NCBI RefSeq assembly: GCF_020073745.1
Contig: NZ_JAIRAU010000002.1
Location: forward strand, 209,694-273,693
Origin: Nannocystis pusilla
GTDB lineage: Bacteria; Myxococcota_A; Polyangia; Nannocystales; Nannocystaceae
DNA length: 64,000 nucleotides
Direction of reading: 5' to 3'
The position numbers and the translations under genes are program-made. The notes beneath the pieces are model-generated. The model was not told the DNA's origin. It saw only the letters and a list, made by a program, of their open reading frames with translations, and did not search any database. This document shows positions 23,019 to 27,077 of the stretch, piece by piece; within the stretch, counting starts at the first letter, position 1; every line of letters begins with the position of its first letter.

Positions 23019-23606
23019 CTAGACGGCGGCCTTGGCTTCCTGTGAATCTTCTTTGGTTTCAGGCGGTTGAGCGTGAAACATCAAGTAGGGAATGAGCAGT
23101 AGGACGCCGACGACGAGGGCGATGTCGGCGACGTTGAAGTTGGGCCAGCACAGGCCGCGGTTCCACGGGGCGCAGACGCGGATGAAGTCGACGACGCCGT
23201 GGTGGAGCTGACCCAGCGCGTCGGTGTCCTGGCGGAGCAGGCGGTCGTGCATGTTGCCGAGGGCGCCGCCGATGATGCAGCCGATGGCGAAGAAGCCGTA
23301 GAGGCGGTCGGTCGGCAGCTTGCGGACCAGGGCGGCCATGTAGACCACCGTGATCAGGGTGACGACGATGAAGATCGGGCGGGAGAAGTCCTGGCCGCGC
23401 AGGAAGCCGAAGGCCGAGCCGGTGTTGAAGCTGTAGGACCAGTGGAACCAGTTGCCGATCGCGGCGATCGACTTGTGCGGCGGCCGGAGGTTCTCCCAGG
23501 CCCAACTCTTGGTCACGAGGTCGAGGATCAGAAACACCGCGGCTGCAGACGCGGTGACGAGGATCGGCCGGAGCCGGGCGGACTTCGAAGCTGGCGTGTC
23601 GCTCAT
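23019..23606 (-). CDS. lspA: Lipoprotein signal peptidase II
   Basis: LspA motifs NTGSAFGF and NVADIALVVG with 4 TM helices. ATG at 23606. Confidence 0.8.
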   Translation of the reverse strand: MSDTPASKSARLRPILVTASAAAVFLILDLVTKSWAWENLRPPHKSIAAIGNWFHWSYSFNTGSAFGFLRGQDFSRPIFIVVTLITVVYMAALVRKLPTDRLYGFFAIGCIIGGALGNMHDRLLRQDTDALGQLHHGVVDFIRVCAPWNRGLCWPNFNVADIALVVGVLLLIPYLMFHAQPPETKEDSQEAKAAV

Positions 23607-23883
23607 GAACGGCCGGAAACCCCGGCAGTGTACCCGAGGTGCTCGGGGGAGCAAGCGCGGCTGCCGCTGGCGGAAGCCCGGCGAAAAGCCCGCAGAGGGC
23701 GTTCAGGAGGGTCCGCGGCGCGCCGGGCGACGTGCGACGCGGACGTGCGCTGCCCTCGAGCGGCGGCGCCCGGCCGAGGAGGAGATCGATCGGGGAGCCA
23801 CCGGTCGTCGCGGACGAGGCGATCCGCAACCTCACCAGGCCTCCCGCGAGGCGAGATCGGGCGTGATGTCCTCGCCGGCCCGC

Positions 23884-24420
23884 TCAGGTCGGGGAACCGT
23901 TGCTGGTCGGGGCTTCGGTGCGCGGAAGCACGAGGAGGAACAGCAGGACGCCGGCGACGAGGACGGCATCGGCGATGTTGAAGGCGGGCCAGGTCTTGCC
24001 GGGCCAGATGTAGACGACGATGAAGTCGACCACGCAGTAGTCGCCGGCGTAGACGCGGACGAGGCGGTCGTGGAGGTTGCCGAGCGCACCTCCGGCGATC
24101 AGACCGATGGCGACGAAGGCGGCGCGGCTCGTGGTCGGCAGGGTCCGCGCGAGGTGGACGAGGTAGCCGACGGCCGCCAGGGTGATGACGATGAAGAAGT
24201 AGCGGGCCCAGTCGACGTCGTTGAGGAAACCGAAGGCCGAGCCGGGATTGCAGGCGAAGTCGAAGTGGAGCAGCTTGTCGCTGACCTTCCAGGCCGCCTG
24301 ATCGCGGAGGTTGTTCCAGACCCAGGCCTTGCTCCAAAGGTCGAGGCCGAGGCTGAGACCGGCGATCGCCGCTGCGAGGGCGATCCGCGGTCCGCGTGTG
24401 GGTTCGGGTGGGGCGGCCAT
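23884..24420 (-). CDS. lspA: Lipoprotein signal peptidase II (second, tandem paralogue)
   Basis: Motifs NPGSAFGF and FNIADAVLVAGV. 178 aa, located 277 bp upstream of the first lspA on the same strand. Confidence 0.8.
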   Translation of the reverse strand: MAAPPEPTRGPRIALAAAIAGLSLGLDLWSKAWVWNNLRDQAAWKVSDKLLHFDFACNPGSAFGFLNDVDWARYFFIVITLAAVGYLVHLARTLPTTSRAAFVAIGLIAGGALGNLHDRLVRVYAGDYCVVDFIVVYIWPGKTWPAFNIADAVLVAGVLLFLLVLPRTEAPTSNGSPT

Positions 24421-24501
24421 GGCGGGCGCGGAGCATACCAGGGTCGCGCGGGCGGTGAACCCGTCGGCGGCCGCGAAAGGATCCGTGACGGGAGCCGCGG
24501 C

Positions 24502-25404: not shown

Positions 25405-25419
25405 GGCGTGCTCAGGGGT

Positions 25420-26304
25420 TTAACCACCCGGCGGAGGCGTGCAAGATCGGGGGCTCTCCGGGGTGTGAGAGGGATGCAGGAGCTTCACGCGCAGAAGCTC
25501 CTTGAGGCGCGCGTTGCCGACCCGCTTGCCGCTCGCGGCCGCTGTGGCCGGTCGCTCCCACCGCGGCGGCGGCCGGCCGGCGAGTTCGGCGAGGCGGGCG
25601 AAGATCTCGCGCCGCGGGGTGTGGTCGTCGTCGACGACGTTGACGACCGCGCGCCGACCCGGAGGCAGGGCGAGGGCGGCAAGGACGGCCTGGACGGCGT
25701 CGTCCCGATGGATGAGGTTGGTCGGCTGCATGCCGTCGCCGGGCAGGACGCCGTCGTCGGGGGCGCCGCGGTAGAGGCGGAACAGCTCGCGGCCGGGGCC
25801 GTAGAGGCCGCCGAGGCGGAGGATCGTCCACGGGAGGTCGTGGCGGACGCCGGCCTCGCGCACGAGCTCCTCGGCCTCGCGCTGCACGCGGCCGCGCGGC
25901 TCGACGGGCCAGTCGGGACAGTCGTCGTCGAGCCACTCGTCGCGGTCCGGCAGCGCCGACGTGGAAGAGGTGTAGACGAGGCGGGCCAGCGGGAGCGCGG
26001 CCGCGGCGGCGAGCAGGCGGCGGGTGCCCTCGATGTAGAGGTCGCGGCGGTCCTGCTGCTTGCCGGGGGCGTAGCAGACGACGAGCGCGCGGGCGCCGGC
26101 GAGGGCGGCCGCGAGCTCGCCGGCGCTCGCGGCGACGACGTCGAGGGGGCGCACCTGGATGCCCTCCGGGACATGCCCATTCGGCCATGTCCCGGAGCGC
26201 GTGGTCGCAAGGACAGGCGGATCGGCGGGGCCGGCGGTCGCGGCGAGCGCGGCCGCGACCGGGGCGCCGAGGAAGCCGGCGCCGACGACCGCGACCGGGC
26301 GCAC
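25420..26304 (-). CDS. NAD(P)-binding epimerase/dehydratase-like protein
   Basis: N-terminal VAVVGAGFLGAPVAAAL Rossmann motif and C-terminal Rossmann-like oxidoreductase features. GTG at 26304 is chosen; the upstream part of the track ORF 25420..26877 is the shadow of the OMP gene. The CDS carries a 34-bp inverted-repeat copy of the repeat family. Confidence 0.6.
   Translation of the reverse strand: MRPVAVVGAGFLGAPVAAALAATAGPADPPVLATTRSGTWPNGHVPEGIQVRPLDVVAASAGELAAALAGARALVVCYAPGKQQDRRDLYIEGTRRLLAAAAALPLARLVYTSSTSALPDRDEWLDDDCPDWPVEPRGRVQREAEELVREAGVRHDLPWTILRLGGLYGPGRELFRLYRGAPDDGVLPGDGMQPTNLIHRDDAVQAVLAALALPPGRRAVVNVVDDDHTPRREIFARLAELAGRPPPRWERPATAAASGKRVGNARLKELLRVKLLHPSHTPESPRSCTPPPGG
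26153..26194. repeat. Repeat-family units forming a 34-bp inverted repeat inside the epimerase CDS
   Basis: ctccgggacatg-cccattcggc-catgtcccggag, with centres at 26173.5 and 26187.5 plus a weak unit at 26159.5. Encodes SGTWPNGHVPEG. Confidence 0.55.
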
Positions 26305-26327
26305 GCCTGCGAGCACGAGCGGGGCGC

Positions 26328-27077
26328 TCAGAACGAGACGCCGCCGCCGAGCAGCAGGTTGAGGCGGGCGACGAAGAACGCCGGGCAGTAGACGCCGGGG
26401 GCGTTGGCGCAGCCGTAGCCGTAGCGCGGGCCGAAGCTCATGTCGAACTGCGGGAACTGCAGCCAGACGATCCAGCGGTCGTCGAGCATGAGCTTGAGGC
26501 CGATGCCGAACTGCAGGTTCGCGGCGTGGTTGGTGTAGTGGTAGTAGGCGCCGTTGTAGTAGTTCCAGCGGTCCGACAGCAGGTGGTAGCCGAGCGAGAC
26601 GTTCGGCGAGATGTACAGGCCGAGGTCCTTCTTCGGCTGGATGTCGTAGGTGAACTTCGGCGCGATGACGAAGCCGAAGCGGCGGTAGCCGAACTCTTCG
26701 TTGAGCAGGACGCCGAGCGCGGGGCCCGAGGCGTTGCCGCTGAAGTGACCGTTGAACTCCTGGGTCAGCTTGAACGAGCCCCAGTAGCCGAAGCCGCCGT
26801 AGCGGCAGGGAATACCTGGTGCGCCGCAGCCGTAGTAGCCGGCATCGTAGTAGTACGACGAGCCGCCGATGCCCCACGAGGGGCCGAGGCCGAACAGGAA
26901 CTGCATGGGCCGGGTGCCCGGTCGCAGCACGCGGGGGACCGCTGCTTCAGCGTCAGTGGGCGCGACCGTGCTGCCGAGCAATGCGGCCCCGAGCGCCGCA
27001 GCGGCGAGGCCGAGCTTGCGTCGGCGACGGCCGGATTGGACAGGCAGGTGACGGTCCGAGGAGGTGGCCTGGGTCAT
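26328..27077 (-). CDS. Outer-membrane beta-barrel protein
   Basis: Signal peptide, Gly/Tyr-rich alternating amphipathic strands and a C-terminal GGGVSF ending in Phe. SD aggag before ATG 27077. Confidence 0.65.
   Translation of the reverse strand: MTQATSSDRHLPVQSGRRRRKLGLAAAALGAALLGSTVAPTDAEAAVPRVLRPGTRPMQFLFGLGPSWGIGGSSYYYDAGYYGCGAPGIPCRYGGFGYWGSFKLTQEFNGHFSGNASGPALGVLLNEEFGYRRFGFVIAPKFTYDIQPKKDLGLYISPNVSLGYHLLSDRWNYYNGAYYHYTNHAANLQFGIGLKLMLDDRWIVWLQFPQFDMSFGPRYGYGCANAPGVYCPAFFVARLNLLLGGGVSF

Follow-up and report, generated by a model that had tools for sequence, protein, structure and literature searches.

Organization of the lspA locus

The gene cluster described here lies on the minus strand of a 64,000-nucleotide stretch of the genome of Nannocystis pusilla (contig NZ_JAIRAU010000002.1, positions 209,694–273,693 of the forward strand), a stretch referred to below as the window. 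It contains two lspA genes in tandem, which encode predicted signal peptidase II enzymes, preceded by genes for an outer-membrane-protein (OMP)-like product, an atypical member of the short-chain dehydrogenase/reductase (SDR) group and a conserved 300-amino-acid (aa) hypothetical protein, named unk300 here. The order on the minus strand is OMP-like gene, SDR gene, unk300, lspA-b and lspA-a, with intergenic gaps of 11, 15, 81, and 277 bp, respectively. Beyond lspA-a there are convergent pabB, pgsA, SLT transglycosylase and nadB genes. The features of the cluster are as follows:

23019..23606, minus strand: lspA-a, the downstream copy, 195 aa, faster-evolving A-type paralog (PF01252, TIGR00077)
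23607..23883, minus strand: 277-bp spacer between both lspA genes, a position occupied by lgt in more distant relatives
23627..23654, minus strand: promoter-like element 5' of lspA-a, conserved in seven Nannocystis genomes
23884..24420, minus strand: lspA-b, the upstream copy, 178 aa, highly constrained B-type paralog (PF01252, TIGR00077)
24432..24459, minus strand: promoter-like element 5' of lspA-b, conserved in seven Nannocystis genomes
24502..25404, minus strand: unk300, conserved 300-aa hypothetical protein without a Pfam or NCBIfam match
25418..25444, minus strand: bipartite promoter-like motif 5' of unk300, present in 39 of 40 loci
25420..26316, minus strand: atypical SDR or "epimerase-like" Rossmann protein, 298 aa, GTG start (PF01370, PF13460)
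26328..27077, minus strand: secreted OMP-like protein, 249 aa, recognized by sequence features without a family match

The G+C content of the window is 71%. Its DNA is 96.7% identical to that of Nannocystis sp. SCPEA4 (GCA_026626685.1), and its proteins share 94–99% identity with those of N. radixulma. Within approximately 10 kb the cluster has housekeeping neighbors on both sides, namely pgsA, pabB, SLT, nadB, and CarD on one side and sucCD and mdh on the other.

The two LspA proteins

A first-pass annotation of the region had proposed two full-length lspA genes on the same strand, 277 bp apart, and this was confirmed by the open reading frames, by matches to PF01252 and TIGR00077 and by the catalytic Asp motifs. 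The Peptidase_A8 family (PF01252) covers the full domain of both products, with scores of 110.5 bits for lspA-a (E 1e-31) and 106.2 bits for lspA-b (E 2e-30) at a cut-off of 25, and both also pass the cut-off of 73.95 bits for the lspA equivalog TIGR00077 (75.9 and 82.4 bits, respectively). When aligned to LspA of Pseudomonas aeruginosa (5dir/9emz), both copies were found to retain the catalytic Asp pair, in the motifs VVDF and FNVAD of lspA-a and VVDF and FNIAD of lspA-b. All 14 residues listed as highly conserved in LspA (PMC6952399) are present in lspA-a, in lspA-b and in each of the 135 homologs compared, as are the D...K, N.G, G..GN..DR, V.D, and FN.AD motifs. Four hydrophobic segments were located in each protein by the crude Kyte-Doolittle method, at residues 9–37, 72–99, 101–120, and 151–182 of lspA-a and in four equivalent groups in lspA-b. 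From these features we infer activity as signal peptidase II for the products of both genes, which would then cut the signal peptide from diacylglyceryl-prolipoproteins. Neither copy is truncated or lacks the Asp dyad, and at 47% identity to each other they are not recent, near-identical duplicates.

The start of lspA-a was placed at the ATG at 23606, which is also the NCBI start call in Nannocystis sp. SCPEA4 and which gives a gap of exactly 277 bp to lspA-b. A longer open reading frame of 211 aa, starting with TTG at 23654, was rejected as an over-extension; the ATG is favored as the true start because this TTG falls inside the conserved -35-like hexamer described below.

The canonical single-copy LspA proteins of P. 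aeruginosa (PDB 5DIR) and Staphylococcus aureus (6RYO) share with the two window proteins the Peptidase_A8 signature, the four transmembrane segments, the Asp dyad and the 14 conserved residues, at a sequence identity of approximately 30%. The window proteins differ in having a longer loop between GxxGNxxDR and the first catalytic Asp, the starts of the motifs being 19 and 24 residues apart as opposed to 14 in P. aeruginosa. Also specific to Nannocystis are changes in lspA-a within the loop that separates the catalytic Asp residues, two cysteines in RVCAPWNRGLCWPNF among them.

Conservation of the cluster and the position of lgt

Seven Nannocystis genomes, the window included, share one and the same gene order. 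The core of atypical SDR, unk300 and two lspA genes was encountered again in about 50 metagenome and MAG loci, and in most of the more distant ones lgt is placed between the lspA genes or ahead of them. More distant metagenome-assembled genomes (MAGs) carry a homolog of unk300 of 303–311 aa, followed by lspA, lgt and lspA and then by convergent pgsA, SLT and nadB genes, with pabB and pgsA being convergent in related loci. A scan of metagenomes with an unk300 profile gave 55 loci. Where at least 700 bp of downstream sequence was available, the next same-strand gene after unk300 was lspA or lgt in 36 of 41 loci. In the 25 loci with at least 2.6 kb downstream, the arrangement was lspA-lgt-lspA in 12, lspA-lspA in five, lgt-lspA in four, lgt-lspA-lspA in one and neither gene in three, which places lgt within the cluster in 17 of the 25. 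All of the loci closest to the window belong to those that have no lgt, and they include L013, the nearest relative outside Nannocystis.

In 25 of 32 metagenome loci, the gene directly 5' of unk300 is an SDR gene. Membership of the OMP-like gene in the cluster is limited to the clade proximal to Nannocystis; the gene is inverted in loci L007 and L027, and in the L007 MAG both it and the SDR gene are on the opposite strand. In Nannocystaceae bacterium ST9 (L012, 6001..9382), the unk300 homolog is followed not by lspA or lgt but by a radical-SAM gene and a gene for a 462-aa hypothetical protein. Hence, unk300 is often linked to lspA or lgt, but this is not a strict rule even among the Nannocystaceae.

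A tblastn search with two Nannocystaceae Lgt proteins detected neither lgt nor a remnant of it in the 64 kb of the window, the 277-bp spacer between the lspA genes included. This spacer ranges from 128 to 498 bp across the Nannocystis genomes and is 1 bp in L013. The possibility that it represents a decayed lgt was ruled out by the null tblastn result and by its length, which varies from 1 to 498 bp among relatives. The spacer contains no Rfam family and no terminator-like site, and a search of Rfam over the whole cluster returned a single sub-threshold chance match. The most economical reading is that of an ancestral SDR-unk300-lspA-lgt-lspA cluster from which lgt was lost at this site in the lineage of Nannocystis and its nearest relatives.

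Age and asymmetry of the duplication

A neighbor-joining tree of lspA (200 bootstraps) grouped the copies by their position. An A-type clade with 93% bootstrap support unites the downstream copies from the window, L013 and L007, and the corresponding upstream copies make up a B-type clade with 100% support. Given this grouping by position, the tree places the duplication before the split of these lineages. The ratio of nonsynonymous to synonymous substitution rates (dN/dS) was calculated within Nannocystis for genes of the locus:

lspA-b: dN/dS 0.03–0.09
pgsA: dN/dS 0.04–0.11
unk300: dN/dS 0.06–0.09
lspA-a: dN/dS 0.20–0.29, or 0.22–0.27 for the catalytic core only

By this measure lspA-a evolves approximately five times faster than lspA-b, a difference that also holds in the catalytic core. 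A B-like copy was scored in most of the metagenome loci, and this is also the type found in loci with only one lspA after lgt. Among the more distant Nannocystaceae, the gene located after lgt is the well-conserved, B-like copy, and the other copy is of a divergent third type. From the rates and the pattern of retention, we infer that lspA-b is the core or principal enzyme and lspA-a an accessory isozyme.

Promoter-like elements

The five genes had been annotated as one minus-strand operon. They do all lie on the same strand, and the operon description is right only in part, as promoter-like motifs are found before three of the genes, the gaps are variable in length within the genus (80–580 bp) and the OMP-like gene is confined to the proximal clade. 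A consensus scan of the cluster found no canonical sigma-70 promoter, and the sole terminator-like site lies inside lspA-a.

The element preceding lspA-a consists of TTGCTC (23654–23649), a 16-nt spacer and TACACT (23632–23627), 20 nt 5' of the ATG, and it is kept in all seven Nannocystis genomes, in which the DNA further upstream is unalignable. The element preceding lspA-b consists of TTCACC, a 16-nt spacer and TATGCT, 11 nt 5' of the ATG. It is likewise kept in the seven Nannocystis genomes despite a gap between unk300 and lspA-b that ranges from 80 to approximately 580 bp, and here too the upstream DNA is unalignable.

In front of unk300, the sequence TTGCAC (25444–25439) is followed by a 15-nt spacer and TTAAAC (25423–25418), with GTGG in front. 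The consensus of this element across the family is cCTTGCg-N12/13-cgTGcTTAaAccc, or in a shorter form CTTGC-N-TGCTTAAAC, and it was found in 39 of 40 loci, mostly 12–22 nt before the start codon, in a region where the loci are otherwise unalignable. Because of this lack of alignable flanking DNA, no alignment-independent neutral baseline was needed for the element. A scan with a position weight matrix, built from 34 training sites that included the window's own site, found the element once in the window at 28.9 bits, with the next best site at 8.6 bits and a maximum of 18.4 bits in Markov-shuffled sequence. These data indicate that a conserved transcription unit probably starts at unk300, and in Nannocystis it is likely, judging from the elements kept before them, that each lspA has in addition a promoter of its own.

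The TTAAAC half of the unk300 element is AT-rich in a genome of high G+C content, with CTTGC located 15–16 nt upstream, and the TAA stop codon of the SDR gene forms part of this AT-rich half. The intergenic spacers of the cluster measure 80–580 bp in Nannocystis (L001–L006) as compared to 1–60 bp in L013, and this expansion suggests a lineage-specific break-up of the operon into separately promoted genes.

The unk300 protein

The gene for a 300-aa hypothetical protein that the first-pass annotation had placed upstream on the same strand was recovered as unk300 (24502..25404). Its product is acidic, all-helical and cytoplasmic, with an Arg-rich and very conserved C-terminus. It has no match in Pfam or NCBIfam, and no Sigma70 family of Pfam was hit by any of 51 members at E values up to 10. 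An exhaustive HMMER search collected 222 representative clusters of the family. An AlphaFold2 (AF2) model made from 51 sequences reached a pLDDT of 91.4 and a pTM of 0.90, and the predicted fold is weakly sigma-factor-like; comparisons with RpoE of Escherichia coli were negative both by Foldseek and by hhalign (probability 0.4%). One family member of 625 aa carries an N-terminal Ser/Thr kinase domain.

Two distant members (L014:8001-9517 and L015:8001-9574) are not located beside lspA. Instead they overlap by 4 bp a neighboring gene for a tail-anchored protein of 152–169 aa, whose N-domain is cytoplasmic and whose C-terminus carries a Gly-zipper membrane segment, and this overlap recalls the gene pairs of sigma and anti-sigma factors. 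A linkage between unk300 and lspA outside the Nannocystaceae was rejected, as these two members adjoin the gene for the Gly-zipper membrane protein.

As a hypothesis, unk300 could be a sigma-like DNA-binding regulator. We regard a sigma-like fold as possible but doubtful, and a regulatory function of this kind as more doubtful still. A broader and unlikely proposal is that unk300 founds a highly divergent sigma-70-like branch (sigma-2 plus sigma-4), tied in the Nannocystaceae to the expression of lspA, lgt and lspA from the conserved promoter, with the presumably inactive, NmrA-like SDR as a possible NAD(P)-sensing partner. If true, unk300 would represent the first known case of a dedicated regulator module being coupled to the expression of Lgt and LspA.

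The SDR and OMP-like proteins

The Rossmann-fold gene that had been proposed upstream was identified by its match to PF01370 (E 8e-14, 52 bits, cut-off 20.9), and it matches PF13460 as well. Its GTG start is also the NCBI call in strain SCPEA4. The dinucleotide-binding motif GxGxxG is kept as GAGFLG. At the catalytic YxxxK motif the window protein and two distant orthologs have RxxxQ (RGRVQ, compared to YGKSK of GalE, the GalE sequence serving as a positional guide only), and another SDR of the window (34..1146) keeps YxxxK in the same alignment column. The gene is under the weakest constraint in the cluster, with a dN/dS of 0.23–0.44. The cluster SDR is atypical and probably non-catalytic, as judged from its motifs.

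The label of outer-membrane beta-barrel, which the first-pass annotation gave to the product of 26328..27077, is plausible from sequence features and was not backed by a family match in Pfam or NCBIfam. The protein has an N-terminal RRRRK, a hydrophobic segment and an AEA motif, resembling a signal peptide, its residues are 16.5% aromatic and 14.5% Gly, and its C-terminal GGGVSF ends in Phe. A single-sequence AF2 model of it had a pLDDT of 38 and was unusable.

Role of the lspA pair

We read the cluster as a chromosomal housekeeping lipoprotein-maturation locus, a lineage variant of the myxobacterial cluster of two lspA genes and lgt, in which an old duplication has given rise to two non-equivalent copies; the probability we attach to this is roughly two in three. 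The suggestion of specialized or extra lipoprotein processing that accompanied the first description fits with the pair being ancient, with both copies being intact and under purifying selection, with the housekeeping synteny (pgsA, pabB, nadB, sucCD) and with the presence of lgt between or beside the copies in more distant relatives. Under such an arrangement lspA-b, being strongly constrained and kept by other lineages, would probably perform the bulk of the processing, and lspA-a, with its approximately fivefold faster evolution and its own promoter-like element, would most likely serve as an accessory isozyme for a subset of substrates or under a certain condition. At this site lgt would have been lost in Nannocystis and the relatives nearest to it, the intergenic gaps would have grown and gene-specific promoters would have been acquired, with the transcription unit starting at unk300 behind the conserved motif and unk300 itself perhaps acting as a divergent, sigma-like DNA-binding regulator.

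Three points weigh against this reading. In the more distant Nannocystaceae the second copy cannot be assigned clearly to the A- or the B-type and is placed differently with respect to lgt, so that its history is not a simple one and may include more than one duplication or a rearrangement. The division into a principal and an accessory enzyme draws solely on evolutionary rates and patterns of retention. There is also a small lipid- or polyketide-like cluster with a beta-branching cassette located 12 kb from lspA.

A tandem pair of lspA genes is an arrangement already known in myxobacteria. In Myxococcus xanthus, lspA1 (MXAN_0368) and lspA2 (MXAN_0369) are adjacent (bioRxiv 10.64898/2026.08.28.747804), and they are described as a tandem housekeeping pair that shares an operon with lgt (Xiao & Wall 2014, as summarized in PMC8689077). 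Like this pair, the window locus has tandem lspA genes on one strand of a myxobacterial chromosome, in housekeeping surroundings, and its relatives carry lgt in the same cluster. It differs in being without lgt (in the 64 kb), in its 277-bp gap and in its promoter-like element for each gene, the two loci being compared by their arrangement. The upstream partners unk300 and the atypical SDR are not mentioned in the available papers on the M. xanthus pair. What is modestly new here is the loss of lgt in a lineage, the asymmetric evolution of the copies, the partner unk300 with its possibly sigma-like fold and the conserved promoter motif.

It could be argued that the copies are plainly redundant, being interchangeable back-up or dosage copies without a division of labor, which would provide a high LspA capacity in a lipoprotein-rich cell. 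Neither copy has lost a catalytic or conserved residue, and purifying selection acts on each. In M. xanthus, lspA1 and lspA2 are both described as housekeeping genes, and their single mutants develop normally (PMC8689077; bioRxiv 10.64898/2026.08.28.747804). However, the window copies share only 47% identity and have remained in separate clades over a long divergence, they show a five-fold difference in dN/dS, each has a distinct, conserved promoter-like element, and in lineages with a single copy it is always the B-like type that has been kept, whereas simple dosage duplicates would more likely have been homogenized or randomly lost. Redundancy is therefore improbable in our view. A more radical departure from a shared function, in which lspA-a has been neofunctionalized for a mainly regulatory or other proteolytic role, such as that proposed for LspA4 in the control of TA levels, would agree with the relaxed or different selection on lspA-a and with the changes in its inter-Asp loop, the two cysteines among them. 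It is very improbable given that the dyad and the 14 conserved residues are kept and that a dN/dS of approximately 0.25 corresponds to purifying selection.

LspA is an antibiotic target, and to our knowledge the myxobacteria are the only Gram-negative bacteria that make an LspA inhibitor, so that extra lspA copies in this group invite a reading in terms of resistance. The first-pass annotation accordingly raised the possibility of a self-resistance copy of the globomycin or myxovirescin type. On this account one copy, most plausibly lspA-a with its faster evolution and its own promoter-like element, would be an inhibitor-insensitive or decoy LspA protecting the producer of a globomycin- or myxovirescin-like compound, and the discrete AT-DH-KS-KR-HMGS-ECH-ECH-ER cluster at 1–11 kb of the window, which is listed below, might be counted in its favor. 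Cassettes for beta-branching with an HMG-CoA synthase also occur in trans-AT polyketide synthase (PKS) pathways, e.g., that of myxovirescin. Extra lspA genes are indeed known from M. xanthus, in which lspA3 and lspA4 sit in the myxovirescin (TA) cluster, and from globomycin producers (PMC8689077, PMC8048626). These genes, including the second lspA of globomycin-producing Streptomyces, resemble the window pair as extra LspA paralogs in bacteria from inhibitor-making groups, but they lie in or adjoin an inhibitor cluster, whereas the neighbors in the window are housekeeping genes. No PKS or non-ribosomal peptide synthetase (NRPS) megasynthase was found in the 64 kb, the largest open reading frame of which encodes a 1,068-aa Ser/Thr kinase with TPR repeats, and 12 kb of housekeeping genes separate the lspA genes from the lipid cluster. 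Dozens of Nannocystaceae lineages have the pair at this very housekeeping position, and most of the distant ones have lgt within the pair. The conserved residues that contact inhibitors are unchanged in both copies. Given this wide conservation at a housekeeping position, a role in self-resistance is unsupported and very unlikely.

Being an old, widely conserved housekeeping cluster with asymmetric evolution, the Nannocystis lspA pair should not serve as a flag in genome mining for LspA-inhibitor pathways. It does offer a comparative framework for the question of why lipoprotein-rich myxobacteria keep two LspA proteins, comprising a B-type core, a variable second copy, a mobile lgt, a partner gene for a hypothetical protein and a promoter motif.

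Flanking genes

At the left end of the window (34..11000) there is a discrete lipid cluster resembling type-II fatty acid synthase (FAS) or PKS systems, which may extend past the left edge. The 12 kb of housekeeping genes between it and lspA are syntenic with a distant MAG. The order of its functions is given above in short form, with AT for acyltransferase, DH for dehydratase, KS for ketosynthase, KR for ketoreductase, HMGS for HMG-CoA synthase, ECH for enoyl-CoA hydratase and ER for enoyl reductase. Its genes are:

34..1146, minus strand: SDR reductase
1581..2840: AONS/serine-palmitoyltransferase (Spt)-like aminotransferase
2866..3873: FabD-like acyltransferase
about 3633..4415: FabA-like dehydratase
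4442..5752: ketosynthase, followed by a ketoreductase-type SDR
6518..7759: HMG-CoA synthase
7809..8564 and about 8600..9334: two enoyl-CoA hydratases, with two further SDRs

Taken together, this set at 1–11 kb resembles a small pathway of the lipid type that includes a beta-branching cassette.

Genes of lipid metabolism are also conserved around the lspA locus itself:

21131..21730, plus strand: pgsA, coding for a CDP-alcohol phosphatidyltransferase
27981..28892, minus strand: PlsC-type acyltransferase
28889..29830, minus strand: second SDR, which also seems to be without YxxxK

All three are neighbors of the locus in L007 and L013 too. The product of pgsA makes the precursor of phosphatidylglycerol, the acyl donor used by Lgt.

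Divergent from the OMP-like gene is a conserved hypothetical gene (27252..27977, plus strand) with no family match. Its product is 38% identical to a protein of the distant MAG L007, where the gene lies directly 5' of the unk300 homolog and on the same strand. Further along the window, 49510..50682 (plus strand) encodes a bacterial GRAS-domain protein (PF03514, E 1e-33), a family known best from plant transcription regulators, and is followed by a gene for a SpoIIE-type PP2C phosphatase (51178..52149).

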